The notes under the pieces were generated by a model, which ran no database searches, had not been told where the DNA came from, and saw nothing but the letters and a program-made list of their open reading frames with translations. Below, in pieces: positions 3,849 to 45,171 of a stretch of 64,000 bases of DNA (position 1 is the first letter of the stretch; each line of letters opens with the position of its first letter). The position numbers and the translations under genes are program-made. This stretch comes from a bacterium (GTDB lineage: Bacteria; UBA8248; JACPRG01; G963555815): positions 800,001 through 864,000 of the forward strand of contig CBDHDG010000006.1 of the NCBI GenBank assembly GCA_965261595.1, read 5' to 3'.

Positions 3849-4097
3849 ATGCGCCTGTCGTGGAATGAGATTCGCGCCCGCGCCGCCGCCTTCGCGCGGG
3901 AATGGGCGGGCGAGGGCTACGAGAAGGGGCAGACCCAGCTCTTCTACAACGACTTCTTCGATGTCTTCGGCTTGTCCGTCCGCAGGGTGGCCGCCTTCGA
4001 GGAACCCGTCAGGAACCTCGACAACACGCACGGCTACATCGACCTGTTCTGGCCGGGCGTCCTGCTCGTCGAGCAGAAGAGCGCCGGGCGCGATCTA
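3849..4097 (+). pseudogene. N-terminal fragment of an MmeI-like (Type IIL/IIG) restriction-modification enzyme, cut by IS630
   Basis: MRLSWNEIRARAAAFAREW...YEKGQTQLFYNDFFDVFG...GYIDLFWPGVLLVEQKSAGRDL resembles the MmeI-family PD-(D/E)xK N-terminal domain. Confidence 0.8.
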
Positions 4098-12281: not shown

Positions 12282-12349
12282 CTAGGCGCCGTCTTTGCCC
12301 GGCTGGACCGCCCCTGGGTTATTGGACACTCGGGTGAGGGTATTCGACC

Positions 12350-13258
12350 TCATGCGGCCTCCGCAACTTGAGCGAGTTTTTCCTGCCTTGCCTGGGCCGG
12401 CGTTCGGTAGCCGTAGCCCTCGAGAATCCAATGATGGTTATACAGGTTCTTGAACTCAAGCAGCGCCCACCGCAGTTCCTCTACGGTGGCGAAAGAGCGC
12501 ACCCACAGGAGATTCTCCTTCAAGATGCGGATGAACCACTCACAGTAGCCATTTCCCTCGGGCGCCCGCACGAAGCTGGGCGAACTGGTCATGCCCAGGT
12601 AGGCGATCTCCCGCTGAAAGTCATCGGACAGATAGGCGGGGCCGTGGTCGTGACGAACTTTAAGCCCCTCGGCGACGTCCGCCTCCAAGCCGGCGAAGCG
12701 CTCGGCGACCCCCTGCCGGATCGGCTCCAGGGCCTCGAAGCGGTTGCCGCTCTTGGCCGCATGGATCCCCACGCAGTCCACCGAGCAGTGATCCACCGCC
12801 ACGAACACCGAGGCCATCCCCTCCTCGGTGGTCACCGTCGTCGTCATGTCCGTGCCCCACATTCGGTCGGGCCGCTCGGTGCGGATGGTCCCGTTGTGGG
12901 CCTTGGGACCTCGGGGTTTGCCCACCCGGTGGGGGGCCTGAAGCCCCGCCTCCCGCATCAGGCGACGCACCCGCTCCTTGCTGGTGCGGATGCCCGCGAA
13001 GCGCAGCCTCGCCCACACCTTGCGGTAGCCCTCGCCATGGAAGGGAGAGTCCTCCAGGACCTGCCGGATGTGGCCGAGGAGTTCCGCATCGGTGCACGGG
13101 CCCACAGGGCCGCGCTTATTGGGCGTGGGGCGTTCATGAACGGGGACCGCCTCTCGCCGCCGTTGCGCGTAGACCGTGGAGCGCGCCAAGCCCCAAAGGG
13201 CGCACACCCGCTTCAGGCCGTAGGCTCTGCCCGTGGAGGTGAAGCGGGCCTGACTCAT
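12350..13258 (-). CDS. IS3-family transposase OrfB (integrase core)
   Basis: EGYRKVWARL, WGTDMT, RHDHG, NGYCEWFIRILKE. Confidence 0.93.
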   Translation of the reverse strand: MSQARFTSTGRAYGLKRVCALWGLARSTVYAQRRREAVPVHERPTPNKRGPVGPCTDAELLGHIRQVLEDSPFHGEGYRKVWARLRFAGIRTSKERVRRLMREAGLQAPHRVGKPRGPKAHNGTIRTERPDRMWGTDMTTTVTTEEGMASVFVAVDHCSVDCVGIHAAKSGNRFEALEPIRQGVAERFAGLEADVAEGLKVRHDHGPAYLSDDFQREIAYLGMTSSPSFVRAPEGNGYCEWFIRILKENLLWVRSFATVEELRWALLEFKNLYNHHWILEGYGYRTPAQARQEKLAQVAEAA

Positions 13259-13641
13259 CGCCTCCACCTCCTGCCGGCTAAAGGGCGGCCGGCCTCCAGG
13301 CGGTCGATCTTCTCCCGCAGGACCTCGCCCTCCATCGTGAGTTCGCCCACCTTGGCCTTGAGCCGGGCGTTCTCCTCGTCCCGCTCATCCGCCGGGCGGG
13401 CTTTGAGCGCCGCCTCGCCCCCGCGAAGGAACGCCTCGCGCCAGGCGGAAAGCCGAGCCGCTGTCGTGCCCAACTCGCGGCAGAGCGTCTCCAGGCTCTC
13501 GCCCCGCAAAAGACGCAGGACCGCCTCCCGCTTGCGCTGGCAGGAGAACCGACCCCGCTCACTGCGATGCCCTGGGGCCTTGGCTCCGTTCGCCCTGCGG
13601 GCGCCCTCCGCCAAAGCCCCCTCTTGCTTTTGTTCGTTCAT
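13255..13641 (-). CDS. IS3-family transposase OrfA (HTH)
   Basis: RKREAVLRLLRGESLETLCRELG HTH plus ENARLKAKVGEL coiled coil. Confidence 0.88.
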   Translation of the reverse strand: MNEQKQEGALAEGARRANGAKAPGHRSERGRFSCQRKREAVLRLLRGESLETLCRELGTTAARLSAWREAFLRGGEAALKARPADERDEENARLKAKVGELTMEGEVLREKIDRLEAGRPLAGRRWRR

Positions 13642-13820
13642 CGCGACACCCCTTTCTCCATGAATCATGGATCAATCGAGTGTCCAACAAAACCCTAGAG
13701 CGGGGGACGGCTTCGGCAACATGCTCTTGTGCTTTTGCCCCAAAAACCGGAAACTGGCGTAATCCTGCGTTCAGGCGTTGTTGGCGATTTTGTGCCGGAA
13801 GGCACATGGAGGATCTTTGC

Positions 13821-19658: not shown

Positions 19659-19948
19659 TTCCGATTTTTAAAGGGACTTATATATTTGGGTTAATGTGAC
19701 GATACTGCCACAAATAAGGGGAATTATATACGAACGTCCCGAACCTCAGCGCCTCCGGTTCCGGGGCTTGTCAATTAGGCGGACGTTCACAGTATCAAGC
19801 AAGGCCCCGGTGACCTCTTCCATGCTGGGGGTCGATCCGTATCGCTTCCTCAGATTGGCGTCCATGCCCTCTTTGAGTTCCCGTCCCCCGCTCAGGGTTT
19901 TGTTGGACACTCGATTGATCCATGATTCATGGAGAAAGGGGTGTCGCG

Positions 19949-20335
19949 ATGAACGAACAAAAGCAAGAGGGGGCTTTGGCGGAGTGCGCCCGTAGGGCGA
20001 ACGGAGCCAAGGCCCCAGGGCATCGCAGTGAGCGGGGTCGGTTCTCCTGCCAGCGCAAGCGGGAGGCGGTCCTGCGTCTTTTGCGGGGCGAGAGCCTGGA
20101 GACGCTCTGCCGCGAGTTGGGCACGACAGCGGCTCGGCTTTCCGCCTGGCGCGAGGCGTTCCTTCGCGGGGGCGAGGCGGCGCTCAAAGCCCGCCCGGCG
20201 GATGAGCGGGCCGAGGAGAACGCCCGGCTCAAGGCCAAGGTGGGCGAACTCACGATGGAGGGCGAGGTCCTGCGGGAGAAGATCGACCGCCTGGAGGCCG
20301 GCCGCCCTTTAGCCGGCAGGAGGTGGAGGCGATGA
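19949..20335 (+). CDS. IS3-family transposase OrfA
   Basis: Near-identical to 13255-13641. Confidence 0.88.
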   Translation: MNEQKQEGALAECARRANGAKAPGHRSERGRFSCQRKREAVLRLLRGESLETLCRELGTTAARLSAWREAFLRGGEAALKARPADERAEENARLKAKVGELTMEGEVLREKIDRLEAGRPLAGRRWRR

Positions 20336-21240
20336 GTCAGGCCCGCTTCACCTCCACGGGCAGAGCCTACGGCCTGAAGCGGGTGTGCGCCCTTTGGGGC
20401 TTGGCGCGCTCCACGGTCTACGCGCAACGGCGGCGAGAGGCGGTCCCCGTTCATGAACGCCCCACGCCCAATAAGCGCGGCCCTGTGGGCCCGTGCACCG
20501 ATGCGGAACTCCTCGGCCACATCCGGCAGGTCCTGGAGGACTCTCCCTTCCATGGCGAGGGCTACCGCAAGGTGTGGGCGAGGCTGCGCTTCGCGGGCAT
20601 CCGCACCAGCAAGGAGCGGGTGCGTCGCCTGATGCGGGAGGCGGGGCTTCAGGCCCCCCACCGGGTGGGCAAACCCCGAGGTCCCAAGGCCCACAACGGG
20701 ACCATCCGCACCGAGCGGCCCGACCGAATGTGGGGCACGCACATGACGACGACGGTGACCACCGAGGAGGGGATGGCCTCGGTGTTCGTGGCGGTGGATC
20801 ACTGCTCGGTGGACTGCGTGGGGATCCATGCGGCCAAGAGCGGCAACCGCTTCGAGGCCCTGGAGCCGATCCGGCAGGGGGTCGCCGAGCGCTTCGCCGG
20901 CTTGGAGGCGGACGTCGCCGAGGGGCTTAAAGTTCGTCACGACCACGGCCCCGCCTATCTGTCCGATGACTTTCAGCGGGAGATCGCCTACCTGGGCATG
21001 ACCAGTTCGCCCACCTTCGTGCGGGCGCCCGAGGGAAATGGCTACTGTGAGTGGTTTATCCGCATCTTGAAGGAGAATCTCCTGTGGGTGCGCTCTTTCG
21101 CCACCGTAGAGGAACTGCGGTGGGCGCTGCTTGAGTTCAAGAACCTGTACAACCATCATTGGATTCTCAAGGGCTACGGCTACCGAACGCCGGCCCAGGC
21201 AAGGCAGGAAAAACTCGCTCAAGTTGCGGAGGCCGCATGA
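20332..21240 (+). CDS. IS3-family transposase OrfB (first catalytic Asp replaced by His)
   Basis: Near-identical to 12350-13258. Confidence 0.9.
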   Translation: MSQARFTSTGRAYGLKRVCALWGLARSTVYAQRRREAVPVHERPTPNKRGPVGPCTDAELLGHIRQVLEDSPFHGEGYRKVWARLRFAGIRTSKERVRRLMREAGLQAPHRVGKPRGPKAHNGTIRTERPDRMWGTHMTTTVTTEEGMASVFVAVDHCSVDCVGIHAAKSGNRFEALEPIRQGVAERFAGLEADVAEGLKVRHDHGPAYLSDDFQREIAYLGMTSSPTFVRAPEGNGYCEWFIRILKENLLWVRSFATVEELRWALLEFKNLYNHHWILKGYGYRTPAQARQEKLAQVAEAA

Positions 21241-21484
21241 GGTCGAATACCCTCACCCGAGTGTCCAATAACCCAGGGGCGGTCCACCGTGAGCTTAAAA
21301 AGCGACGCTCAGGCGCGAGAATATTATTTCTGCGGGGTTGTGGTGCCCGTCGGAAAACAAGGGCCTCATAGGCGAGGTTTGGTGAAATTCTCGTATATTC
21401 CTGCGTTCCGTGTGGTGATAATCGTGGGGACAATGGATAGATCATAATTATAGATTTATTAAATACAATATATTGCAGTGTGCT

Positions 21485-30437: not shown

Positions 30438-31842
30438 TGGACCGCCCCTGGGTTATTGGACACTCGGGTGAGGGTATTCGACCTCATGCGGCCTCCGCAA
30501 CTTGAGCGAGTTTTTCCTGCCTTGCCTGGGCCGGCGTTCGGTAGCCGTAGCCCTCGAGAATCCAATGATGGTTGTACAGGTTCTTGAACTCAAGCAGCGC
30601 CCACCGCAGTTCCTCTACGGTGGCGAAAGAGCGCACCCACAGGAGATTCTCCTTCAAGATGCGGATAAACCACTCACAGTAGCCATTTCCCTCGGGCGCC
30701 CGCACGAAGCTGGGCGAACTGGTCATGCCCAGGTAGGCGATCTCCCGCTGAAAGTCATCGGACAGATAGGCGGGGCCGTGGTCGTGACGAACTTTAAGCC
30801 CCTCGGCGACGTCCGCCTCCAAGCCGGCGAAGCGCTCGGCGACCCCCTGCCGGATCGGCTCCAGGGCCTCGAAGCGGTTGCCGCTCTTGGCCGCATGGAT
30901 CCCCACGCAGTCCACCGAGCAGTGATCCACCGCCACGAACACCGAGGCCATCCCCTCCTCGGTGGTCACCGTCGTCGTCATGTCCGTGCCCCACATTCGG
31001 TCGGGCCGCTCGGTGCGGATGGTCCCGTTGTGGGCCTTGGGACCTCGGGGTTTGCCCACCCGGTGGGGGGCCTGAAGCCCCGCCTCCCGCATCAGGCGAC
31101 GCACCCGCTCCTTGCTGGTGCGGATGCCCGCGAAGCGCAGCCTCGCCCACACCTTGCGGTAGCCCTCGCCATGGAAGGGAGAGTCCTCCAGGACCTGCCG
31201 GATGTGGCCGAGGAGTTCCGCATCGGTGCACGGGCCCACAGGGCCGCGCTTATTGGGCGTGGGGCGTTCATGAACGGGGACCGCCTCTCGCCGCCGTTGC
31301 GCGTAGACCGTGGAGCGCGCCAAGCCCCAAAGGGCGCACACCCGCTTCAGGCCGTAGGCTCTGCCCGTGGAGGTGAAGCGGGCCTGACTCATCGCCTCCA
31401 CCTCCTGCCGGCTAAAGGGCGGCCGGCCTCCAGGCGGTCGATCTTCTCCCGCAGGACCTCGCCCTCCATCGTGAGTTCGCCCACCTTGGCCTTGAGCCGG
31501 GCGTTCTCCTCGGCCCGCTCATCCGCCGGGCGGGCTTTGAGCGCCGCCTCGCCCCCGCGAAGGAACGCCTCGCGCCAGGCGGAAAGCCGAGCCGCTGTCG
31601 TGCCCAACTCGCGGCAGAGCGTCTCCAGGCTCTCGCCCCGCAAAAGACGCAGGACCGCCTCCCGCTTGCGCCTGGCAGGAGAACCGACCCCGCTCACTGC
31701 GATGCCCTGGGGCCTTGGCTCCGTTCGCCCTGCGGGCGCCCTCCGCCAAAGCCCCCTCTTGCTTTTGTTCGTTCATCGCGACACCCCTTTCTCCATGAAT
31801 CATGGATCAATCGAGTGTCCAACAAAACCCTAGAGCGGGGGA
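30438..31842 (-). mobile_element. IS3-family insertion sequence, copy 3 (orfA frameshifted)
   Basis: Near-identical to copy 1; CCT on both flanks; extra C near 31671; orfB 30484-31392 keeps WGTDMT. Confidence 0.93.
30484..31392 (-). CDS. IS3-family transposase OrfB
   Basis: Same protein as copy 1 OrfB. Confidence 0.92.
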   Translation of the reverse strand: MSQARFTSTGRAYGLKRVCALWGLARSTVYAQRRREAVPVHERPTPNKRGPVGPCTDAELLGHIRQVLEDSPFHGEGYRKVWARLRFAGIRTSKERVRRLMREAGLQAPHRVGKPRGPKAHNGTIRTERPDRMWGTDMTTTVTTEEGMASVFVAVDHCSVDCVGIHAAKSGNRFEALEPIRQGVAERFAGLEADVAEGLKVRHDHGPAYLSDDFQREIAYLGMTSSPSFVRAPEGNGYCEWFIRILKENLLWVRSFATVEELRWALLEFKNLYNHHWILEGYGYRTPAQARQEKLAQVAEAA

Positions 31843-32053
31843 CCTAATTGTTGGGAGACCACTTCCATAACCGCTGGGCGGGAGGGATCCCGCTCAGCGG
31901 TTCATGCATGGGCGCTGTTGTAGGGGGAAGATTGTCCTTTTGCCCTCCGGTTCATAGGCCGCGATCCATATATAAACGGCTCACGACGCCGTGGGATACC
32001 CGCCCATTTGCTTGAGAGGAATTATGGGACCCGTTGTGACCAATTTGTGACCA
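31843..32053 (+). repeat. Shared non-coding module R1 (hairpin + conserved segment + TTGTGACCA tandem repeat)
   Basis: 31843-31985 aligns with 43972-44115; 31935-32032 aligns with 34722-34818 and 41464-41562. Confidence 0.85.
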
Positions 32054-32164
32054 CCCCTTCCTCTCAATGTGCCCTCATTCTCCCGTCAGCTTAAAAACCT
32101 GCTAAAATTCCCATCGTCAACCCGAAAAGATACAGACCCGCCCACCTGATGGGGGCAACACGTC

Positions 32165-34647
32165 ATGCGGTACCGGCGCACCGTCCTGATTGCCGTTCTG
32201 GCCTCAGTCCTTATTGCTCCCTCCCTGTTCGCCCAGACGCTGACGGTCAAGGTCCAACGGGGAAACGTGCGCTTCGGGCCTGGCAAGTCCTACCCCGTGA
32301 TCGGAAGGGTCCAAAAAGCCGATAACTTCCCCATCGAGGCCCGCCAGGGCGACTGGTTCAAGATCCTGCTGGAGACGGGCCGGGAGGGCTGGGTCTTCAA
32401 GTCTCTCGTCGAGGTCTCCGGTAAGCGGACGATTGGCGTCGTTCCTTTGGGTCCCACCCCATCGGCCTCCCGGCCTTACGGCGACTCCTGGGCCATCGTT
32501 GTGGGTATCAACCGGTATCGAAAACCGGCCCTGCGCCTCCACTACGCCGTCAACGACGCCCGGAGCGTCACGGCCGCCCTTCAGAAGATCGGCTTTCCCA
32601 AAAGAAACATCATCACCCTACTAGACGAGCGGGCCACGGCGCTGGCCATCCGCACGGCGTTCAACACCCTGATTACAAGGACACAGGGGCAAGACCGGGT
32701 ATTCATCTTTGTCGCGGCGCACGGTTTGACGCTCGACCGTCCGGGGGGCGGGGCGATGGGATACCTGCTTCCGGTGGGGGCGGACCCGGCCAACATTGTG
32801 GGGACGGCCATGCCGATGAGCGAGGTGAAGGACATGGCGTCGCTTCTCAAGGCGAAGCACGTCTTCTTTGCCGTGGACGCCTGCTTCTCAGGTCTTTTGG
32901 CCGCACGGAGCGTGCCTCGGGCGGAAAAGCGGCGTGGACGCGGCTTACCTGACCCGGGGCCGTCTGCGGCAGATCCTCACGGCGGGCGAGCGGGACCAGC
33001 CGGTCCTGGAGGAAGGGGGCCACGGCCTTTTCACCCGGCGGCTCCTGGAGGCGATGGAGGGCGAGGCGGACAATTCTCCCCGGGACGGCGTCCTCACGGC
33101 GATGGAGGTGGCGGCGTTCGTCCAGGGGCAGGTGATCGCCTCGTCCAGCAGCCGTCAGACGCCCTTTTTCGGGACGATGGACGGCGTGGGGCAGTTCGTC
33201 TTCACCGCGCCGGCCATTGGAAATCGTCCGGCTGTTTCTCCGCCTCCGGCAACGCCCCGGCCTCCTGTCGCCTCCATCCCCATGGCTGACCCATTTGCTG
33301 GTCTCGGAAGGGTAGTTAAAGACCCCGATGAATTTGCGGGGTTGGGTAGGAAGGGCACGGGAGACCTGTTCTTGAATTCGAAGCCCCCTGGGGCGGTGGT
33401 CTTCTTGGATGGAAAGCGTCTTTCGGGTCCCACGCCACTCTTGGTCGAGAAGGTCCCCGCCGGTGAGCACCGAATATTGGTCCGCAAGGGCGAGAAGCAT
33501 GGCGGGTTCCGGGACGTTCGGCTCAAAGCGGGTGAGTTGAAGAACCTCACTGTGAGCCTGGAACGCCTGAAGGGTGAGCTTTACGTCAAGGTGCGTCCCT
33601 TCGGTTCGGCAGTTCTCGTGGACGGCAAGCGGTTGGGGAAGTCGCCGCTCAAGACAAAGGTGAACCCCGGTGAACGTCAGGTTGAAGTGAGACAGGAGGG
33701 CTACCGGAGGTACAGCGGCCGAGTGAAGGTCGAATTCGGGAAAACCACGGAAGTCTCGCAGACCCTCGCCGCGCTCGCCACGGCTACGCTGGTGGTTTCC
33801 TCGACGCCTTCGGGGGCGGAGATTTTCATTGGGAAAAAATCAGTGGGCAAGACGCCGCGGGCGATTCGGCTCTATGAGGGGGAATACACCGTTCGATTCA
33901 GGAAGCCGGGTTACAAGCCTTCAAGCCAGAAGGCCCTCGTTCGCGGGGACAGGAAGAGCACGGTTGTTGCCGTCCTGGCCGTTGACCCGATCCCTCCCGG
34001 GATGGTCAAGGTCCCTGCGGGTTGGTTCATCATGGGGAGCGGAAAGTACGAAAGTGAGAAGCCGCGCCGCCGGGTTTACCTGAATGAGTTTTTCATCGAC
34101 AAGTATCCGGTGACGAATGTCCGGTTCCGGAGGTTCGGAAAACCAAAGAAGGATCACGGCTCGAAGTTCAACGGCACCCGTCAGCCTGTGCGTGGGTGTG
34201 ACTTGGAGTCAGGCACGGGATTATTGCGGATCCGTGGGCAAGCGCTTGCCCACGGAGGCCGAATGGGAGAAAGCGGCTCGTGGGGTGGACGGCCGGAAGT
34301 ATCCCTGGGGGAATCAGTGGGACCCCTCGAAGGTGATTTGGGATAAGAACAGCGGCGATAAGACACACCCCGTGGATCGGACGTACAACACCCACCGGAG
34401 CCCTTATGGGGCTGTGGACATGTCGGGGAACGTGTGGGAGTGGGTGGGTGACTGGTTCAAGGCGGATTATTACCGGACCGCCCCGGATCGCAACCCGAAG
34501 GGACCTGCCTCCAGCAGCAGGCGCGTTTTGCGCGGCGGTTCCTGGAGCAGCGACAATACGTCGAACTTCCGCGCGGCGAATCGCAACGATTGGCCTCCGG
34601 ACAACCGGGGCAGCTGGGTTTCGTTTCGTTGCGCCAAGGCTCCATAA
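32165..34647 (+). CDS. SH3 + caspase (peptidase C14) + PEGA repeats + FGE-sulfatase (C-type lectin fold) protein; probable DGR target; frameshifts near 32925 and 34190
   Basis: Signal peptide; NVRFGPG...GREGWV (SH3b); [16 protein letters not shown] and DACFSG dyad; [53 protein letters not shown]...FRCA. Confidence 0.88.
34480..34647 (+). repeat. DGR-type variable region VR1 (3' end of FGE-sulfatase gene)
   Basis: Homologous to 41224-41389 and 41904-42078; constant scaffold codons alternate with hypervariable codons. Confidence 0.75.
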
Positions 34648-34706
34648 TTACCCTTTGTCCTTTCGCCCTCTTACCCTTTGGGGGGTCCAGGGGGCTTGCC
34701 CCCTGG
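34648..34706 (+). promoter_or_regulatory. Pyrimidine-rich spacer and GC hairpin downstream of VR1 (DGR target-recognition-like element)
   Basis: CCCTTT repeats then CCAGGGGGC-TT-GCCCCCTGG (34687-34706); the hairpin recurs unchanged at 41430-41449. Confidence 0.7.
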
Positions 34707-34721
34707 TTGGTTTAGCGATTA

Positions 34722-34843
34722 GCCCTTTTTCCCTCCGTTCATATCCTCAAACCCATAATGATCCGGCTCGCGACGCCGTGGGGACCCGCCCATTCGCTTA
34801 AGAGGAATTATGGGACCCAAAGTAGGTGTCTATTCAGGTGTCT
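34722..34843 (+). repeat. Shared module R2 ending in AGGTGTCT tandem repeat
   Basis: CGACGCCGTGGG.ACCCGCCCATT.GCTT.AGAGGAATTATGGGACCC shared with R1; AGGTGTCT at 34824 and 34836. Confidence 0.85.
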
Positions 34844-34961
34844 TCTGAGGGTACACAAACCCACACACAGACACACAACCAGCACAAAGAGGTTTTCGCG
34901 GGAATCCAACAACAACGGGGATTTACGGGGGTTGGCCTGAGAATCCCGGAAGGCTTCTGAC

Positions 34962-35072
34962 GGATTTAATGTGCGCCGCCTAGAGGAAGGGCTGCCAGGA
35001 TGAAAAGCCGCAGGTCTGCCGGTTCAAGCCGAAGCATCGAGCTAACAGCGAAGACTCAAGAATGACCCCGCC
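34962..35072. ncRNA. Possible fragment of a structured RNA (6S/ssrS-like)
   Basis: GGTTCAAG...AGCGAAGACTCAAG loosely resembles the 6S RNA closing region; judged by eye only. Confidence 0.2.
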
Positions 35073-35083
35073 GCTTCTCCTCC

Positions 35084-35887
35084 TCAATCTATCAGGATCT
35101 GGCTGAGGAACAGCTTGGTGCGATCGTTCTGGGGGTTCTCGAAGAATCCATGGGGCTCGTTCTGCTCGATGATCTCGCCGCCGTCCATGAAGATGACACG
35201 GTCGGCGACGGTCTTGGCGAAGCCCATCTCATGGGTCACGACGAGCATGGTCATGCCGGTGCCGGCGAGTTCGATCATCACGTCCAGAACCTCCGTGATC
35301 ATCTCCGGATCCAAGGCCGAGGTCGGTTCGTCGAACAGCATGATCTTGGGCGACATGCAGAGCGCCCGCGCAATCACCACCCGCTGCTGCTGGCCGCCCG
35401 AAAGCTGGCCCGGGAACTTCTCTGCCTGTTCGGGTATCCGGACTCGCTCGAGATATTCCCGCGCCAATTCATTGGCCTCGGCCTTGGGCTTATTGCGCAC
35501 CCAGATCGGGCCCAATGTCAGATTCTCAAGCACCGTGAGATGGGAAAATAGATTGAAGTGCTGAAACACCATGCCGACTTCGCTGCGAATGGTGTGAATG
35601 TTCTTGAGATCGTTGGTGAGCTCGGTCCCGTCGACGAGGATCTGGCCCTGCTGGTGTTCTTCGAGCCGGTTTATGCAGCGGATCAGGGTGGACTTTCCAG
35701 ACCCCGACGGCCCGCAGATGACGATGCGCTCACCCTTATTGACGGTCAGGTTGATGTCCTTGAGCACATGGAAAGAACCGAACCATTTGTGGACACCCGT
35801 CATCTCGATCATGACGTCCTCGGAGACGGTCATGGTCTTGGTTGGGTGTTTGAGTCCGTCTTCCGATAAACCGGCTTTGTCATACAT
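35084..35887 (-). CDS. aapP: General L-amino acid ABC transporter ATP-binding protein
   Basis: [30 protein letters not shown]; last gene of the operon. Confidence 0.9.
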
Positions 35888-35928
35888 TATTATTTCTCCA
35901 ATCCTTACGTAAGATCCCCCGCCTAAGC

Positions 35929-37050
35929 CTAATGGCCGGTATCGAGTTTTCGCTCAAGAAAAAGCGAATACCTCGACATGCTGAAGCAGCAAATGAAGAA
36001 AAACAGCGCGACAAAAATATAGACCTCGCGAGCCAATCCTGCCCAGGCAGTGTCCGCCAACGACGCCCGGCCGACGCCCAGGGGATCGAACATACCTATA
36101 ATCAACACCAGCGTGGTGTCCTTGAAAAGCCCGATAAAGGTATTGACGATTCCAGGAATTGAAATCTTCAGCGCCTGCGGCAAAATAACCAGCCAGTGAG
36201 CCTTCAGGTAGGTTAGGCCAAGAGATTCGGCGGCTTCGTACTGGCCACTGGGAATTCCCTGCAACCCGCCACGAACGACTTCAGCAATATAACCCGCTGA
36301 AAACAGCGTCACCATAATCAGCACCCGCATAAGCAGGTCGAAGACTGTGCCCGGCGGCAGAAAGTAATTGAGCATCGTCGAAGCGATGAACAAAAGGGTG
36401 ATCAGGGGCACTCCGCGGATAAACTCGACGAACAAGACGCAAATAATCCTCAGAATCGGCATCTTCGACCGGCGTCCGAGGGCGAGGAGAATACCGATCG
36501 GAAGTGAGAACGATATGCCAGTGACGCCGATGATCAGTGTCAGCAAGATGCCACCGAATTGGTCGGTTTCAACTGGGCTCAAGCCGAAGCCCCCGACCAG
36601 GAGCCAGCCGGTAATGAACGGGAACGCCATCGCATACAAAAGCCCGACTTTTCGGCCTGGCATCTTATCGTAAAGCACCGGCACGATCGCCATTATCAGG
36701 AGCACGAACGACAGGTTCACCCGCCAGCGCAACGGTGCGGGATAGAACCCATAAACAAAAAGTCCCAGCCGATTTCTGATGAAGGCCCAGCAGGCGCCGC
36801 CCTCCGGCACCTCCATTTTGTCCCAGCATTCCTTGCGTGACTCTGCCGTCCAAACCGAATCCAAGAAGATCCACTCAAATAGCGGCGGTATCACCAACCA
36901 AAGGAACCAGATGGCCAAGAGGGTTAGCACCACGTTGAGCGGCGTAGATAGGAGGTTGTGTTTGACCCATCCGAGAACGCCAACTTCGGTGCGCGGTGGC
37001 GGCAATTCCGGATGCTGACCGGTTTCGTAGGTTTTCTCAACGTCAGCCAT
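35929..37050 (-). CDS. aapM: General L-amino acid ABC transporter permease
   Basis: [42 protein letters not shown]. Confidence 0.88.
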
Positions 37051-37053
37051 GGC

Positions 37054-38253
37054 TTATCTCTCCACCAGGGCCATCTTCTTGTTGTACCAATTCATGAATC
37101 CCGAGATCAGCAAAGAGATTGTGAGATACAGCAGAAGGACGATAATCATCGTCTCCATCTCTTTGCCCGTCTGCATCAGGGTAATCCCGCCGATCGTGGC
37201 GACGATATCCGTGTAGCCGATGGCGATCGCCAACGACGAGTTCTTGGTCAGGTTCAGATACTGGCTGGTCAGCGGCGGGATGATGACGCGGAGCGCCTGG
37301 GGTATGATGATCAGCCTGAGCGTTCTGTTGGGACGAAGCCCGAGCGCATAAGCGGCCTCGGTCTGCCCGTGGCTGACCGCGAGGATTCCCGAACGGACGA
37401 TCTCCGCGATAAAGCACGATGTGTAATAGGAAAGCGCCAGCCACAGAGCGATGAACTCGGGTTTGATTGCCAGCCCGCCGTTGAAATTGAACCCCTTCAG
37501 CTCCGGAATACCCCAAGAAAGCGGCATGCCAGCGGAAAGAAAAGCGGCCGCCATCATCACCACGATCACTCCAGTCGATATCCAGAAAACGGGGTAAACC
37601 CGACTCGTCTCACCCTGGATTTTTTTCGCCCAGCGTCTGAAAAAGAACACAAAAACAACCGAGATCACGAAGGCCGCCGCGACGATCCCGGCACCGGGTT
37701 CCAAAACGGGTTGGGGAATGAAGAATCCTCTGTTCGTGAGAAAGAAGATATCAGCAAAATTTATTGCCTTCTTTGGCACCGGCAAATGGATGACGACCAG
37801 CCCGTAGATGAACAGGATGTGCAAAAGGACAGGAACGTTGCGCGTGAATTCCAGGAAGCAATAAACGATACGGTTGACCAGCCAGTTCGTGGAGAGCCTG
37901 AGGATCCCCATTATGAAACCCATTATTGTCGTGAGAACTATACTGCAAGCTGCAACCAGCAGAGTGTTGAGAATTCCTACGAAGGCAGCCCGTAGATGAG
38001 TGGACCTTGAGCTGTATTCGATAAATGGAGAAAACGTTATGTCGTAACCAGCCGGGTACAAGAGGAAGCTGAAGCTAAACTCTTTTCCTACCGTTTCGAG
38101 GTTGATTACGACGTTACGGAGGATAAGGGCGAGGGCAGCGAATATCACCGTCAGCGTCACGATCTGGATGATGACGGACCGGGCTTTATGGTTTCTCCAA
38201 AGGCGTGTGACCAGGTTGCGGGTGTCAGGACCGGTCTCGACAATTCTGGCCAT
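37054..38253 (-). CDS. aapQ: General L-amino acid ABC transporter permease
   Basis: VGILNTLLVA, EFTRNVPVLL, GFNFNGG, AEIVRSGILAVSHGQTEAA, YLNLTKNSSL. Confidence 0.88.
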   Translation of the reverse strand: MARIVETGPDTRNLVTRLWRNHKARSVIIQIVTLTVIFAALALILRNVVINLETVGKEFSFSFLLYPAGYDITFSPFIEYSSRSTHLRAAFVGILNTLLVAACSIVLTTIMGFIMGILRLSTNWLVNRIVYCFLEFTRNVPVLLHILFIYGLVVIHLPVPKKAINFADIFFLTNRGFFIPQPVLEPGAGIVAAAFVISVVFVFFFRRWAKKIQGETSRVYPVFWISTGVIVVMMAAAFLSAGMPLSWGIPELKGFNFNGGLAIKPEFIALWLALSYYTSCFIAEIVRSGILAVSHGQTEAAYALGLRPNRTLRLIIIPQALRVIIPPLTSQYLNLTKNSSLAIAIGYTDIVATIGGITLMQTGKEMETMIIVLLLYLTISLLISGFMNWYNKKMALVER

Positions 38254-38547
38254 GGCCAACAACGATCTCCTTCACGGGCTCATCAAGACCAAAAAAACCC
38301 AATATTGATACAATTCACGGGGGTGATCTTTGCTGCTGATCACTAGTGAGCTGCACCGTGGTGAGGGTCATTTCAAATAACCAGGGACGCCATCCAAGAC
38401 AAAACGTTCCCAGCCTTCGGTCGGGAAAATTGGTCCATTGGGTGTCTCAGGCACAATCAAATAACAACAAACATGGAATTTCAAGGGTCAATAGGTGCAG
38501 ACGCGTACCGGGACCCGATAGGTCGCCAGCACGCTTTTAGATTGATC

Positions 38548-39956
38548 TGGACCGCCCCTGGGTTATTTATTGGACACTCGGGTGAGGGTATTCGACCTCA
38601 TGCGGCCTCCGCAACTTGAGCGAGTTTTTCCTGCCTTGCCTGGGCCAGCGTTCGGTAGCCGTAGCCCTCGAGAATCCAATGATGGTTGTACAGGTTCTTG
38701 AACTCAAGCAACGCCCACCGCAGTTCCTCTACGGTGGCGAAAGAGCGCACCCACAGGAGATTCTCCTTCAAGATGCGGATGAACCACTCACAGTAGCCAT
38801 TTCCCTCGGGCGCCCGCACGAAGCTGGGCGAACTGGTCATGCCCAGGTAGGCGATCTCCCGCTGAAAGTCATCGGACAGATAGGCGGGGCCGTGGTCGTG
38901 ACGAACTTTAAGCCCCTCGGCGACGTCCGCCTCCAAGCCGGCGAAGCGCTCGGCGACCCCCTGCCGGATCGGCTCCAGGGCCTCGAAGCGGTTGCCGCTC
39001 TTGGCCGCATGGATCCCCACGCAGTCCACCGAGCAGTGATCCACCGCCACGAACACCGAGGCCATCCCCTCCTCGGTGGTCACCGTCGTCGTCATGTGCG
39101 TGCCCCACATTCGGTCGGGCCGCTCGGTGCGGATGGTCCCGTTGTGGGCCTTGGGACCTCGGGGTTTGTCCACCCGGTGGGGGGCCTGAAGCCCCGCCTC
39201 CCGCATCAGGCGACGCACCCGCTCCTTGCTGGTGCGGATGCCCGCGAAGCGCAGCCTCGCCCACACCTTGCGGTAGCCCTCGCCATGGAAGGGAGAGTCC
39301 TCCAGGACCTGCCGGATGTGGCCGAGGAGTTCCGCATCGGTGCACGGGCCCACAGGGCCGCGCTTATTGGGCGTGGGGCGTCCATGAACGGGGACCGCCT
39401 CTCGCCGCCGTTGCGCGTAGACCGTGGAGCGCGCCAAGCCCCAAAGGGCGCACACCCGCTTCAGGCCGTAGGCTCTGCCCGTGGAGGTGAAGCGGGCCTG
39501 ACTCATCGCCTCCACCTCCTGCCGGCTAAAGGGCGGCCGGCCTCCAGGCGGTCGATCTTCTCCCGCAGGACCTCGCCCTCCATCGTGAGTTCGCCCACCT
39601 TGGCCTTGAGCCGGGCGTTCTCCTCGTCCCGCTCATCCGCCGGGCGGGCTTTGAGCGCCGCCTCGCCCCCGCGAAGGAACGCCTCGCGCCAGGCGGAAAG
39701 CCGAGCCGCTGTCGTGCCCAACTCGCGGCAGAGCGTCTCCAGGCTCTCGCCCCGCAAAAGACGCAGGACCGCCTCCCGCTTGCGCCTGGCAGGAGAACCG
39801 ACCCCGCTCACTGCGATGCCCTGGGGCCTTGGCTCCGTTCGCCCTGCGGGCGCCCTCCGCCAAAGCCCCCTCTTGCTTTTGTTCGTTCATCGCGACACCC
39901 CTTTCTCCATGAATCATGGATCAATCGAGTGTCCAACAAAACCCTAGAGCGGGGGA
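38548..39956 (-). mobile_element. IS3-family insertion sequence, copy 4 (orfA frameshift, Asp to His), between aapJ and aapQ
   Basis: TSD GATC; 4-nt duplication in one TIR (GGTTATTTATTGG). Confidence 0.93.
38598..39506 (-). CDS. IS3-family transposase OrfB (WGTHMT variant)
   Basis: Near-identical to the other copies. Confidence 0.9.
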   Translation of the reverse strand: MSQARFTSTGRAYGLKRVCALWGLARSTVYAQRRREAVPVHGRPTPNKRGPVGPCTDAELLGHIRQVLEDSPFHGEGYRKVWARLRFAGIRTSKERVRRLMREAGLQAPHRVDKPRGPKAHNGTIRTERPDRMWGTHMTTTVTTEEGMASVFVAVDHCSVDCVGIHAAKSGNRFEALEPIRQGVAERFAGLEADVAEGLKVRHDHGPAYLSDDFQREIAYLGMTSSPSFVRAPEGNGYCEWFIRILKENLLWVRSFATVEELRWALLEFKNLYNHHWILEGYGYRTLAQARQEKLAQVAEAA

Positions 39957-39977
39957 GATCAACAATCAGTCGGTCTT

Positions 39978-40997
39978 CTAACGGAACGGCGGCGAATACT
40001 GCAGGCCGCCATTCGTCCACAAGGCATTTTGCCCACGAGGGAGACCGATAGGCGTTTTGGTGCCAATATTGCGCTCAAAGATCTCGCCGTAGTTACCGAC
40101 GAACTTGATGATATTGTACGCCCAGTCATTGCTCAGGCCCAACTCTTTACCCTGGCTACCCTCAACGCCCAAGAGACGCAAGACTTCGGGGTCTTTGGAG
40201 CTTTTCATCTTATCGACATTAGCCTGCGTGACGCCCTTTTCCTCAGCCGTAATCGTCGCGTTGAGAACCCAGGTTATAATATCAGACCACTGGTCGTCAC
40301 CTTGACGGGTGGCGGGACCCAGGGGCTCTTTCGAGATGATCTCTGGCAGGATGATGTGATTCTGCGGATCAGAGAACGTTGAACGGGTGGCGGCTAGACC
40401 TGAGGCGTCGGTGGTGTAAACGTCGCACCGTCCAGAAGAGTAGTTCTGCCGCGCCTCCTCGTTGGTCTCGATGGGTACGGCCTCATACTTCATGCCATTG
40501 GCGTGGAAGTAATCGGCTAGGTTGAGTTCAGTTGTTGTGCCGGTTTGGATGCAGACCGAAGCGCCGTTAAGTTCCTTAACGCTCTTGACACCGATCGCCT
40601 TCTTCACCATAAAGCCTTGGCCATCATAGTAGTTTACGCCATGGAATCGCAACTTAACGCCGACGTCGCGAGAGAAGGTGATGGTGGTGTTCCGCCACAG
40701 TACGTCGCCCTCACCTGAGTTGAGCTTGGTGAACCGGGTCTTGCCGGTCGCCGTCACCGCCTTGATCTTGCTTGCATCTCCCAGTACCGCCGCGGCAGTC
40801 GCCCGGCAGAAATCGATGTCGAAGCCTTTCCAAACGCCGCTCGCGTCCGGATAAGCAAAGCCGGCGATGCCGGTGCTTACGACGCAGCGCAACACACCGC
40901 GGGACTTGACGTCATCCAAGGTTCCGGCCCCGGCGCCAACCGGCCCGAGCGCCACGGCCATCGCCGCGCCTACGACCATCAACTTTAGAGTTTTCAC
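39978..40997 (-). CDS. aapJ: General L-amino acid ABC transporter substrate-binding protein
   Basis: Signal peptide, GFDIDFCRA, NYYDGQGFMV, GTTTELNLADYF, ISKEPLGP, GNYGEIFERN, NALWTNGGLQYSPPFR. Confidence 0.92.
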   Translation of the reverse strand: MKTLKLMVVGAAMAVALGPVGAGAGTLDDVKSRGVLRCVVSTGIAGFAYPDASGVWKGFDIDFCRATAAAVLGDASKIKAVTATGKTRFTKLNSGEGDVLWRNTTITFSRDVGVKLRFHGVNYYDGQGFMVKKAIGVKSVKELNGASVCIQTGTTTELNLADYFHANGMKYEAVPIETNEEARQNYSSGRCDVYTTDASGLAATRSTFSDPQNHIILPEIISKEPLGPATRQGDDQWSDIITWVLNATITAEEKGVTQANVDKMKSSKDPEVLRLLGVEGSQGKELGLSNDWAYNIIKFVGNYGEIFERNIGTKTPIGLPRGQNALWTNGGLQYSPPFR

Positions 40998-41223
40998 TGC
41001 TTGCCCTCCCAGTTTGTCGGTATGTGACTAAATATGTTCAGCCTCCAAGATCGGACAAAGATTCGCGCCTACACGAATCGCCTCAACGCCCTGATTCGGA
41101 TAATTACCCGAACGCAGCGGCCTCACGGTGCCCGGATCAGATTTAGATCTTACGCTTCTGAGTCGGACAGGGCAAGGGGTAATATATAGCACAGGCCAGG
41201 AGTGGATGCAAGTAGCTGTCTCG

Positions 41224-41449
41224 GCCGCCCGCAACCCGAAGGGCCCATCCTCGGGCACGTTCCGCGTGGTTCGTGGCGCCTCGTGGTTCTACGTCAGTCC
41301 GTCACTCTTCCGCGCGGCGTTCCGGATCTGGTACCCAACTGGGCTTCACGTATGGCAACGTGGGTTTTCGTTGCGCCAAGGCTCCTTAAATTACCCTTTG
41401 CCCTTTCGCCCTTTTACCCTTTGGGGGGTCCAGGGGGCTTGCCCCCTGG
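41224..41449 (+). repeat. Orphan DGR-type variable-region cassette VR2 with stop, spacer and hairpin
   Basis: ARNPKGPSSGTFRVVRGASWFYVSPSLFRAAFRIWY/QLGFTYGNVGFRCAKAP* (one extra base); no upstream FGE gene. Confidence 0.85.
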
Positions 41450-41463
41450 CGGGTTTAGCGATT

Positions 41464-41588
41464 AGCCCTTTTGTCCCTGCGTTCATAGGCCACGACCCAT
41501 AGATATAGATCGCACGATGCCAGGGGGTCCCGCCCCTTCGCCGTGGAGAAGATAGGGGACCCATGCTGTGCCTGTTTTCGTGCCTGTT
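41464..41588 (+). repeat. Shared module R3 ending in GTGCCTGTT tandem repeat
   Basis: GCCCTTTTGTCCCTGCGTTCAT identical to R4; ends GGGACCC then GTGCCTGTT at 41568 and 41580. Confidence 0.8.
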
Positions 41589-41695
41589 GGCTAAGCATTA
41601 GGAGATATACCGAGATAGATCGGAGCGGCGGACAATCCCTTATGGTTATTGGGAAACCCTTGATTTTTCTATGGTTTCCGTGCCACCATTCTCTT

Positions 41696-41752
41696 GATTC
41701 AGGGTCTAGTGGGGGAAACCTCGTGGGAGTTCGAGTCTCCCCTTCGGCACCA
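41696..41752 (+). other. 3' half of tRNA-Leu(CAG); probable att duplication
   Basis: GATTCAGGGTCTAGTGGGGGAAACCTCGTGGGAGTTCGAGTCTCCCCTTCGGCACCA has anticodon loop, long variable arm, T-arm and CCA, but no D-arm or 5' acceptor strand upstream. Confidence 0.85.
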
Positions 41753-41903
41753 TAAAATTCAAGCGTTTACAGGATGGGCGCGTTGCTTGCTTTCGGGATA
41801 TTTCTTTTCGCGTCGCCTGCGCAACCCGCATATGCGAATCGAAACTGTGCGACTTCCAGCGAACTCCATTCAGCACTCGGGCAAGTTTCTTTGAACTATC
41901 CTT

Positions 41904-42078
41904 TACCAAAACGCGCCCGCCCGTAATCCAAAGGGACCTGCCTCGAGCAGCTGGCGCGTGGTTCGCGGCGGCTCGTGGGGCAACCCTCAATCCAACGGGC
42001 TTCCGCGCGGCGATCCGGAGCGGGAGCCGTCCGGGCGGCAGGTACGTCGACCTGGGTTTTCGTTGCGCCATGGCTCCT
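41904..42078 (+). repeat. Orphan DGR-type variable-region cassette VR3 (no hairpin)
   Basis: [58 protein letters not shown] (one extra base). Confidence 0.85.
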
Positions 42079-42440
42079 TCACCGGGGCCGAAACCCTGAC
42101 CTTAAATAACCCTTTGCCAATCCCGATAACCAACCTTCCCCGTCATTCTCGCAGATCCAAATGGGAGAAAATCAGATGACAATCGAGAATCGAATCGCGG
42201 CGCTGGAGAAAAGGTGCAAAAGGCTGGGCAAGACCCTTGTGGGGGTAGGCACCCTGGCTCTTTTTGCCGTTGTCGCCGGTACGGCCGGGTGGACGGTGGC
42301 GTATACGGGCGCCATCAGCCCATCGAGCATCACGACGAGATTGATTATTCTAGAGGATTCAGCCGGAAAGACGCTCCCCCGCTCTAGGGTTTTGTTGGAC
42401 ACTCGATTGATCCATGATTCATGGAGAAAGGGGTGTCGCG

Positions 42441-42827
42441 ATGAACGAACAAAAGCAAGAGGGGGCTTTGGCGGAGGGCGCCCGTAGGGCGAACGGAGCC
42501 AAGGCCCCAGGGCATCGCAGTGAGCGGGGTCGGTTCTCCTGCCAGCGCAAGCGGGAGGCGGTCCTGCGTCTTTTGCGGGGCGAGAGCCTGGAGACGCTCT
42601 GCCGCGAGTTGGGCACGACAGCGGCTCGGCTTTCCGCCTGGCGCGAGGCGTTCCTTCGCGGGGGCGAGGCGGCGCTCAAAGCCCGCCCGGCGGATGAGCG
42701 GGACGAGGAGAACGCCCGGCTCAAGGCCAAGGTGGGCGAACTCACGATGGAGGGCGAGGTCCTGCGGGAGAAGATCGACCGCCTGGAGGCCGGCCGCCCT
42801 TTAGCCGGCAGGAGGTGGAGGCGATGA
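42441..42827 (+). CDS. IS3-family transposase OrfA
   Basis: Same protein as copy 1 OrfA. Confidence 0.88.
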   Translation: MNEQKQEGALAEGARRANGAKAPGHRSERGRFSCQRKREAVLRLLRGESLETLCRELGTTAARLSAWREAFLRGGEAALKARPADERDEENARLKAKVGELTMEGEVLREKIDRLEAGRPLAGRRWRR

Positions 42828-43732
42828 GTCAGGCCCGCTTCACCTCCACGGGCAGAGCCTACGGCCTGAAGCGGGTGTGCGCCCTTTGGGGCTTGGCGCG
42901 CTCCACGGTCTACGCGCAACGGCGGCGAGAGGCGGTCCCCGTTCATGAACGCCCCACGCCCAATAAGCGCGGCCCTGTGGGCCCGTGCACCGATGCGGAA
43001 CTCCTCGGCCACATCCGGCAGGTCCTGGAGGACTCTCCCTTCCATGGCGAGGGCTACCGCAAGGTGTGGGCGAGGCTGCGCTTCGCGGGCATCCGCACCA
43101 GCAAGGAGCGGGTGCGTCGCCTGATGCGGGAGGCGGGGCTTCAGGCCCCCCACCGGGTGGGCAAACCCCGAGGTCCCAAGGCCCACAACGGGACCATCCG
43201 CACCGAGCGGCCCGACCGAATGTGGGGCACGCACATGACGACGACGGTGACCACCGAGGAGGGGATGGCCTCGGTGTTCGTGGCGGTGGATCACTGCTCG
43301 GTGGACTGCGTGGGGATCCATGCGGCCAAGAGCGGCAACCGCTTCGAGGCCCTGGAGCCGATCCGGCAGGGGGTCGCCGAGCGCTTCGCCGGCTTGGAGG
43401 CGGACGTCGCCGAGGGGCTTAAAGTTCGTCACGACCACGGCCCCGCCTATCTGTCCGATGACTTTCAGCGGGAGATCGCCTACCTGGGCATGACCAGTTC
43501 GCCCAGCTTCGTGCGGGCGCCCGAGGGAAATGGCTACTGTGAGTGGTTCATCCGCATCTTGAAGGAGAATCTCCTGTGGGTGCGCTCTTTCGCCACCGTA
43601 GAGGAACTGCGGTGGGCGCTGCTTGAGTTCAAGAACCTGTACAACCATCATTGGATTCTCGAGGGCTACGGCTACCGAACGCCGGCCCAGGCAAGGCAGG
43701 AAAAACTCGCTCAAGTTGCGGAGGCCGCATGA
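42824..43732 (+). CDS. IS3-family transposase OrfB (WGTHMT variant)
   Basis: Near-identical to the other copies. Confidence 0.9.
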   Translation: MSQARFTSTGRAYGLKRVCALWGLARSTVYAQRRREAVPVHERPTPNKRGPVGPCTDAELLGHIRQVLEDSPFHGEGYRKVWARLRFAGIRTSKERVRRLMREAGLQAPHRVGKPRGPKAHNGTIRTERPDRMWGTHMTTTVTTEEGMASVFVAVDHCSVDCVGIHAAKSGNRFEALEPIRQGVAERFAGLEADVAEGLKVRHDHGPAYLSDDFQREIAYLGMTSSPSFVRAPEGNGYCEWFIRILKENLLWVRSFATVEELRWALLEFKNLYNHHWILEGYGYRTPAQARQEKLAQVAEAA

Positions 43733-43971
43733 GGTCGAATACCCTCACCCGAGTGTCCAATAACCCAGGGGCGGTCCAACGCGGCTTAGGCTCCGTGGGT
43801 CAGATGGCACTGTCAGAGCATGTGATTCAGCTGGAAAGACGCGGCTTCAGCTCCATGGGCATGGTAGTATCAGAGCATACGACTCAGCCGGGAAGTGGCG
43901 GGTTAAGCTCTATGGGGAAACCGGAAAGATCTCTTTCAAAACTCTAAACGCCAGAGGAACGGTTTCTCATC

Positions 43972-45074: not shown

Positions 45075-45171
45075 GGAAGCGCATAGGGTCCCGGTGGCCC
45101 TCCTGGACTTCAAATCCAGTGTTCCGGCTTAACCCCCGGTAGGTGGGTTCGACTCCCACGCGCTTCCGCCA
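45075..45171 (+). tRNA. selC: tRNA-Sec (TCA)
   Basis: 8-bp acceptor stem GGAAGCGC/GCGCTTCC, 6-bp D-stem, CTGGA-CTTCAAA-TCCAG anticodon arm, long variable arm, GGTTCGACTCC, GCCA end. Confidence 0.95.

Follow-up and report, generated by a model that had tools for sequence, protein, structure and literature searches.

Three dispersed variable repeats in an IS3-rich bacterial genome are probable remains of two related diversity-generating retroelements

Which template and which enzyme gave three short repeats in a bacterial chromosome their variation, and is the machinery that wrote them still at work? This question is raised by a stretch of 64,000 nucleotides (nt) referred to here as the window (G000:C6:800001-864000, on contig CBDHDG010000006.1 of assembly GCA_965261595.1), in which the 3' end of a gene with an FGE-sulfatase domain (FGE, formylglycine-generating enzyme) recurs at two further places. 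Diversity-generating retroelements (DGRs) reverse-transcribe the RNA of a template repeat (TR) with random bases opposite adenines, and the resulting cDNA overwrites the variable region (VR) at the 3' end of a target gene, which encodes a ligand-binding C-type-lectin (CLec)/FGE fold. The genome under study (G000; 6.17 Mb in seven contigs, 63% G+C) was 96.7% complete and had no N runs or masked stretches; its contigs are abbreviated C2, C3 and so forth, and positions given without a contig are those of the window (Table 1). We conclude that the window very probably holds VRs from two related DGRs, of which the first (DGR1) has its reverse transcriptase (RT1) split elsewhere in the genome and the second (DGR2) is absent, with the repeats VR2 and VR3 left as stumps.

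A first-pass annotation of the window had described the three repeats as remote targets of a DGR acting in trans. The repeats were found where it had placed them: VR2 and VR3 matched each other in blastn with E = 2e-24 and VR1 and VR3 with 8e-17, far beyond chance, all three grouped as one repeat family (D6), and their three-way alignment showed common scaffold blocks (TCGTGG, TTCCGCGCGGCG and GGTTTTCGTTGCGCC). The scaffold and the codon pairs that it had listed for VR2 and VR3 were present in the alignment and the codon table. Its statement that the third codon base is fixed between these two repeats held for most columns but not for all, as the differing columns were distributed over codon positions 1, 2 and 3 as 11/14/6. 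VR1 and VR2 do share a spacer and an identical GC hairpin, which lie in 84 nt past the stop codon that are 95% identical (repeat D8). Neither an RT nor a template repeat was found inside the window, as the annotation had noted, and the only two RVT_1 matches of the genome were located on C7 and at C6:24198. The second of these (C6:24198-24692, locus L002; 30-32 bits in a frame of 1306 amino acids (aa)) had no similarity to RT1 and was rejected as a DGR RT. Three features had gone unmentioned, namely the 1-nt insertions in VR2 and VR3, the truncation of both, and the distribution of the VR1 gene over three frames.

A blastn search of VR1 against the genome, which had been suggested as a means of finding an AAC-rich template next to a DGR RT, led to such a template (TR1) on C7. 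TR1 is 122 nt long, rich in AAC, contains 33 adenines and begins 5 nt past the stop codon of RT1. VR1 aligns with it over 122 nt without gaps and with 15 mismatches, 14 of which fall on TR1 adenines (binomial P = 1.3e-7), while the remaining one is a T>C change. RT1 contains the motifs IGNLTSQ and YVDD and matches RVT_1 with 64 bits. Its best solved relative is a 328-aa chain (8ub7_A, E = 5e-36), which is entitled only 'Reverse transcriptase' in its entry and which we take to be the DGR enzyme of Bordetella phage BPP-1. A further VR of the same template, the cis VR at C7:1187666-1187787, differs from TR1 at 22 positions, 18 of them adenines (P ~1e-7), and terminates a PEGA-FGE protein of 726 aa that is intact and begins with a signal-peptide-like stretch. 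Directly after this target gene follows a bAvd gene (C7:1187890-1188219; PF22296, 69.6 bits at a cut-off of 40), which overlaps the start codon of RT1.

Only the start codon and seven further codons of RT1 are present at that site (C7:1185.6-1188.2k, the half with target, bAvd and first RT codons) before an insertion sequence (IS) begins. The body of RT1 starts at another IS copy, at C7:828807, on the opposite strand and 360 kb from the RT start. The sequence CTTT occurs at both RT1/IS junctions, and the RT1 frames across the two junctions continue each other and are collinear with the N-terminus of the RT of a metagenome relative (L019), in which target VR, bAvd, a 358-aa RT and TR follow one another in the normal order of this clade. 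No Avd was detected beside the RT1 body by Pfam; the bAvd gene lies at the other half of the cassette. The RT1 body lacks an SAAPF stretch that is kept in the L019 RT and in a second RT described below (RT2), which shifts the frame, and it contains a tandem duplication of ~230 nt, the copies of which are separated by junk sequence. A tblastn search with RT1 and RT2 yielded no other DGR RT in the assembly. TR1 reads GCA where all eight compared VRs have GCG, and one of its AAT codons ends in C in all three VRs of the TR1 family; these differences suggest that TR1 has drifted since its last homing. We assign the cassette to the DGRs on the combination of adenine-specific TR/VR differences, an RT of the DGR clade beside the TR (split, frameshifted and partly duplicated), bAvd, and a VR at the 3' end of an FGE gene. 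That VR1 was a remote target of a trans-acting DGR is thus supported by its pairing with a template beside an RT, but the action in trans has to be set in the past, because the sole DGR RT of the assembly is split by IS copies and damaged.

The inserted element is 1.4 kb long and was assigned to the IS3 family because its 305-aa open reading frame carries HTH_21 and rve; an rve_3 domain was also found (Pfam, read on an identical copy in locus L003). The helix-turn-helix plus DDE (rve) transposase, the CTTT at both RT junctions and the number of near-identical copies all agree with this assignment. The genome contains 178 near-full copies at 99-100% identity, which amount to ~4% of its length, and the repeat search placed five of them inside the window. 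Close to the RT locus, an NMT1/THI5-like gene (L003 4870-5914; G000:C7:824870-825914) is split into two frames, a further sign that gene breakage or consensus indels are widespread.

The target gene that ends in VR1 is itself broken. Its sequence is spread over three frames (32165-33289, 32868-34346 and 34117-34647), and tblastn with the intact 726-aa paralogue recovered it in frames 2, 3 and 1 and placed a change of frame near 34189-34199. This second frame break is caused by an extra C near 34190, between two GTG codons. At the C-terminus PF03781 extends up to the last residues, and the C-terminal 176 aa match the variable protein TvpA (PDB 2y3c) with E = 9e-15 and true formylglycine-generating enzymes with E = 2e-24. 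Contigs of four sequencing runs were compared with 31850-38560; among the pieces listed, VR1 was entered only by a 190-nt piece from run X1 that ends at 34555, and none of the 40 listed differences (761 in total) lay in VR1. The X1 contigs ('sponge metagenome') cover parts of window positions 32203-34555 with 1-11 differences per 190-470 nt, and since they cover the target gene with so few differences, a close relative must be present in the sponge metagenome sample.

VR2 and VR3 belong to a different template. When 12 FGE C-termini of the genome were aligned with TR1, two scaffolds became apparent. The TR1 type comprises VR1, the C-terminus at C7:1187787 and, more distantly, that at C7:392650, whereas VR2, VR3 and the C-termini at C3:127410, C6:337014, C6:1229371 and C6:242023 share the second type. 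The variable columns of the second type fall at TR1 adenines as well (20 of the 31 columns that differ between VR2 and VR3, against a background of 33/122; Fisher P = 2.6e-7), and the VR on C3 differs from VR3 in 10/11/1 columns at codon positions 1/2/3. An RT search of metagenome contigs recovered one contig (L018) with an uninterrupted frame of a second RT (RT2), cut at its 5' end by the contig end and 74-82% identical to RT1 in amino acids. After RT2 follows TR2, a 122-nt repeat that has the second scaffold and reads AAC at its variable codons. The contig comes from a close relative, because 1659 nt of its flank are 92.8% identical to C5:937639-939297 of G000; no DGR remnant was found at this syntenic site on C5.

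Against TR2, all 16 mismatches of the C3 VR (C3:127413-127534) and all 21 of VR3 fell on adenines, followed by 22 of 31 for VR2, 20 of 30 for C6:337014 and 18 of 27 for C6:1229371; VR2 and VR3 each contain one 1-nt insertion, and none was noted for the other three. Adenines make up only 27-28% of each template. The P value for VR3 (6e-13) was computed for the 22/22 count of a MAFFT alignment. Mismatches at template adenines, which the first-pass annotation had named as the property to look for, were therefore present in all three repeats. It had also suspected a second template, and two templates there are; its assignment of VR1 to the additional one needs correction insofar as the template of VR1 is present in the assembly and that of VR2 and VR3 is missing. 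No TR2 or RT2 was detected in the assembly by blastn at word sizes 7-9 with VR2, VR3 and TR1 as queries, by scans for three scaffold motifs or by tblastn with RT1 and RT2, all of which found only TR1 and RT1. An exact 23-nt pattern of the TR1-type 3' scaffold had no match in the metagenome contigs.

Among 40 relatives no close RT was found. Three other genomes had RT matches of 32-37% identity in frames of 471-506 aa, which we took to be another RT class. A DNA search of a same-genus genome (G001, identical to G041) detected neither the RT nor TR1; its VR-like sequences were all of the TR2 type, with 8/18 to 22/32 mismatches at adenines, and it contained no convincing orthologue of the VR1 gene.

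Neither VR2 nor VR3 is the stand-alone cassette that the first-pass annotation had made of them; both are truncated, frameshifted stumps of target genes. FGE homology at VR2 begins at ~41213, ~215 nt from a divergent solute-binding-protein gene. An orthologue of this stump is present in G041 (L017; 93% identity over 646 nt including the neighbouring gene) and agrees with it in its boundary, its insertion and all variable codons, on account of which VR2 has been frozen since before the G000 and G041 genomes split. At VR3, homology begins at ~41890, right after an in-frame TGA. Its flanks are paralogous to C6:241.7-244.5k, where the order is the same and runs from a complete tRNA-Leu over a target gene of full length, though frameshifted, to a copy of the small gene; since the paralogous locus has a full-length gene between the same flanks, the VR3 locus lacks ~2 kb of gene body. 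VR3 is absent from the corresponding place in the same-genus relative. Short remnants of this kind are common in the genome, in which tblastn found 26 FGE segments: seven of ten FGE paralogues have an open frame of just 94-206 aa before the stop, and a further short FGE stump at C4:592137 adjoins what reads by eye as a transposase-like (rve-type) C-terminus.

These data would fit the following history. DGR1 would originally have stood on C7 in the order target, bAvd, RT and TR1, with VR1 as its remote target. An IS3-family element may have entered RT1 at about the eighth codon, and a later IS-driven rearrangement could have moved the halves of DGR1 360 kb apart, while the RT1 body would also have gained a frameshift and an internal duplication. 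The sister element DGR2 would have written VR2 and VR3 from TR2, and the genes that carried them were presumably truncated after writing, leaving frameshifted 3' stumps. Both elements would now be inactive: at the level of sequence, an RT1 that is split and damaged, a TR1 that has drifted, the absence of DGR2 from the assembly, the breaks in the target genes and a VR2 that has stayed frozen all point to a dead system.

Several observations weigh against this history. The first frameshift of the VR1 gene, an extra G at 32931, was missing from three other runs at full depth (24.9/24.9 in X20, 11.5/11.5 in X21 and 5.19/5.19 in X1) and from part of the best-holding run, X18 (3.2/7.8), so that some of the gene breaks may be peculiar to one strain or stem from errors of the consensus. 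Neither VR3 nor the C3 VR has drifted from TR2 at positions other than adenines, and VR3 could be the product of a recent rewriting. On their outer sides, the two junction IS copies lack the target-site pattern of one simple inversion; such an inversion was ruled out as the cause of the RT1 split because no matching target duplications were present, and for the same reason more than one rearrangement is likely to have separated the halves of DGR1. TR2 and RT2 stem from the metagenome contig of a relative and not from G000, and as they are known from that contig only, we infer that DGR2 was once present in this lineage. With an assembly that is 96.7% complete in seven contigs, an unassembled DGR2 may exist.

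On these grounds the DGRs could be regarded as still active, with the breaks being artefacts or confined to one subpopulation, DGR2 unassembled or extrachromosomal, and the VRs rewritten in trans. The heterogeneity of position 32931 even in the best-holding run and the exclusive adenine mismatches of VR3 and the C3 VR would suit such activity, as would the homing of the Bordetella phage element, for which the VR and the sequence that follows it suffice and no intact gene is required (PMC3240598). We nevertheless consider it quite improbable. An RT that is split over 360 kb with a full IS at each junction is not expected from consensus indel errors, and RT1 in addition has its 230-nt internal duplication and lacks the SAAPF stretch conserved in RT2 and the L019 RT. 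Furthermore, TR1 has drifted from its VRs at two positions, the variable codons of the VR2 stump are identical in a ~93%-identical genome, and blastn and tblastn found no TR2 or RT2 in a genome without N runs.

A related but narrower idea, to which we give a small chance, is that VR3 was rewritten after the loss of its gene body and that a living DGR2 persists in unassembled or mobile DNA, where it continues to write orphan cassettes. It is suggested by the presence of 21 adenine mismatches out of 21, and of no other drift, in a stump of just 190 nt. If it were true, homing would be blind to gene integrity and would keep free-standing VR cassettes fresh, and such orphan cassettes could pass new binding sites to full-length paralogues by recombination.

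It is highly improbable that VR2 and VR3 are silent donor cassettes that recombine with full-length paralogues in the manner of pilS or vls, be it beside or instead of DGR mutagenesis. Both do stand alone, with flanks conserved with the expressed paralogues (95% in the 3' flank of VR1 and VR2), and the VR2 stump is kept in two genomes. However, no mosaic tracts between stumps and full-length VRs were seen, IS copies and deletions abound around both stumps, the VR3 locus is patched together from segments with paralogues at C6:242-244.5k and has lost the gene body, and the VR2 stump and its orthologue are ~93% identical, about the local background, as would be expected of neutral DNA. Ordinary divergence of FGE C-termini by point mutation under diversifying selection, with no retroelement involved, could appeal to the many FGE paralogues (26 tblastn segments) and the fast evolution of variable loops in lectin folds but is refuted by the adenine-specific mismatches (14/15, 18/22, 16/16 and 21/21 in templates with 27-28% adenine), the sparing of third codon positions (10/11/1 and 12/10/2) and the position of each template directly beside a DGR-type RT.

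The decayed two-DGR system that we favour has parallels in the literature. Cyanobacterial DGRs include orthocaspase or kinase N-termini fused to C-terminal CLec/FGE domains as well as remote variable proteins (Vallota-Eastman et al. 2020, PMC7517822). That study describes, as here, one TR serving the 3'-end VRs of dispersed paralogous CLec genes, caspase-type N-terminal domains, paralogues with remnant TR-VR homology but no RT nearby, and degraded cassettes or RT remnants flanked by transposases. The present case differs from those systems by its two template families, an RT split by IS copies over 360 kb, the absence of one template and the reduction of two VRs to stumps. In Thiohalocapsa PB-PSB1 (bioRxiv 10.1101/2023.09.22.558884), IS elements likewise duplicate, split and delete DGR loci, and there are also multiple DGRs and targets, FGE-type CLec domains and protease effectors. 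The same paper asks which elements are active and which are inactive remnants; it reports 14 targets as diversified in nature, whereas the sequence evidence here points to decay. DGRs with remote targets, targets of the caspase-CLec type and loci shaped by IS elements have hence been published before (PMC7517822; bioRxiv 10.1101/2023.09.22.558884), and our locus reveals no new mechanism. It is distinct for its reconstructable decay, the coexistence of two template families and the recovery of an absent template from the metagenome contig of a relative. The VR at the extreme C-terminus resembles that of Treponema denticola TvpA (PDB 2y3c), a DGR variable protein with an FGE-type fold; unlike TvpA, the protein encoded in the window has upstream SH3, caspase-like and PEGA domains and is closer to true formylglycine-generating enzymes. 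With the Bordetella BPP-1 DGR (mtd-avd-TR-brt) the elements share adenine-specific TR-to-VR differences and the accessory protein bAvd, but the parts here run in the order target-avd-RT-TR, the target has a fold of the FGE subtype, and the element is chromosomal with remote targets.

If our reconstruction is correct, it provides a complete and datable picture of the death of a multi-target DGR, in which an IS that was expanding cut the RT and scattered the cassette and the sister element vanished. VRs that had been written would persist as fossils in broken genes and stumps, some of them conserved across species. Templates that a genome lacks can be regained from a relative's metagenome contig and matched base by base to orphan VRs, and this kind of recovery aids the annotation of 'orphan' VR-like repeats elsewhere.

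Table 1 Positions of the target gene, the variable repeats and neighbouring features in the window
Feature	Position	Strand	Details
IS3-family copy	12304-13707		repeat families
IS3-family copy	19894-21286		repeat families
IS3-family copy just upstream of VR1 target gene	30444-31843	-	repeat families D1-D4, I3-I4
DGR1 remote target gene	32165-34647	+	SH3_3, Peptidase_C14 (caspase-like), three PEGA stretches, FGE-sulfatase (C-type-lectin fold) (Pfam)
First frameshift of VR1 target gene, extra G	32931-32931	+	missing from contigs of related populations
VR1, written from TR1	34520-34641	+	TR1 = G000:C7:827378-827499, minus strand
ACCCTTT-rich spacer and GC hairpin after VR1	34645-34706	+	stem 34687-34694/34699-34706, loop CTTG
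~175-nt repeated element downstream of VR1 gene	34646-34819	+	blastn 75-83%
IS3-family copy	38567-39957	-	repeat families
VR2 stump, last ~58 codons of FGE target gene, no upstream gene body	41213-41389	+	TR2-type VR 41261-41383; +1 insertion; stop 41387-41389
Hairpin after VR2, identical to that of VR1	41430-41449	+	
tRNA-Leu(CAG) 3' fragment, 62 nt	41698-41759	+	98.4% to G000:C6:244438-244499, inside intact tRNA-Leu
VR3 stump, last ~60 codons of FGE target gene	41890-42078	+	TR2-type VR 41953-42075; 1-nt insertion; no hairpin after
Small repeat-containing gene, 5' part	42161-42374	+	91.6% to G000:C6:241751-242025; cut by IS, resumes after 43785
IS3-family copy inserted in small repeat-containing gene	42375-43785	+	repeat families I1, I3, I5

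In both VR families, and in the relative too, most VRs are trailed by the spacer rich in ACCCTTT. The GC hairpin comes after VR1, VR2, the cis VR (9-bp stem, 3-nt loop) and, with an insertion, C7:392650, and no hairpin was found after VR3 or the C3 VR. At VR1 it has an 8-bp GC stem and a 4-nt loop and lies 45 nt past the end of TR homology; it also scores as an intrinsic terminator. For other VRs, GC stems of 7-10 bp with 4-nt GRNA loops have been described at a distance of 4-34 bp, and homing in phage BPP-1 was shown to need such a structure (Guo et al. 2011, PMC3240598). The 8-bp stem and the loop length of our hairpin agree with this description, but the 45-nt distance exceeds the 4-34 bp range and the loop CTTG falls outside the GRNA consensus (PMC3240598). 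By analogy, hairpin and spacer may have served DGR target recognition, a role that stays tentative in view of the misfit of loop and distance and the terminator-like score. The ~175-nt element that includes this region occurs again at 41389-41563, 31936-32032 and G000:C2:198750-198885; it is non-coding, sits downstream of target genes and is more conserved than the coding VRs.

The small gene next to VR3 continues after the IS copy from 43786 to ~44090 and has paralogues at G000:C6:241300-242025, C2:197100-197630 and C6:1439500-1439820; it trails FGE target genes at several loci. An intact version in L017 encodes 150 aa with an N-terminal hydrophobic stretch, which by eye resembles a membrane anchor, and tandem repeats of ~20 aa. 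This protein had no Pfam match. The small gene may code for a protein that acts together with the DGR targets.

Neither ARAGORN nor Rfam called a tRNA at the tRNA-Leu fragment. In front of the fragment (41603-41759 with its upstream part) stand 95 nt with a match to G000:C7:93390-93484 and not to the 5' half of a tRNA, and the 151-nt match to the C7:93390 paralogue is 87% overall; fragment and 95-nt piece together may be an old integration scar. A transfer-messenger RNA (tmRNA) considered at 41603-41752 was rejected, as Rfam and ARAGORN were empty for both the window and the C7:93390 paralogue and its 3' 62 nt are the tRNA-Leu fragment.

Beside DGR2 of the relative, an element of ~120 nt (L018 1423-1545) matches ~40 places in G000 at 84-88% and is probably part of another mobile element that is abundant. 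Elsewhere in the window, a tRNA-Sec gene was located at 45075-45171 (ARAGORN; Rfam 72 bits), and a perfect inverted repeat of 257 nt (1-257 and 4095-4351) flanks 3.8 kb at the left end.

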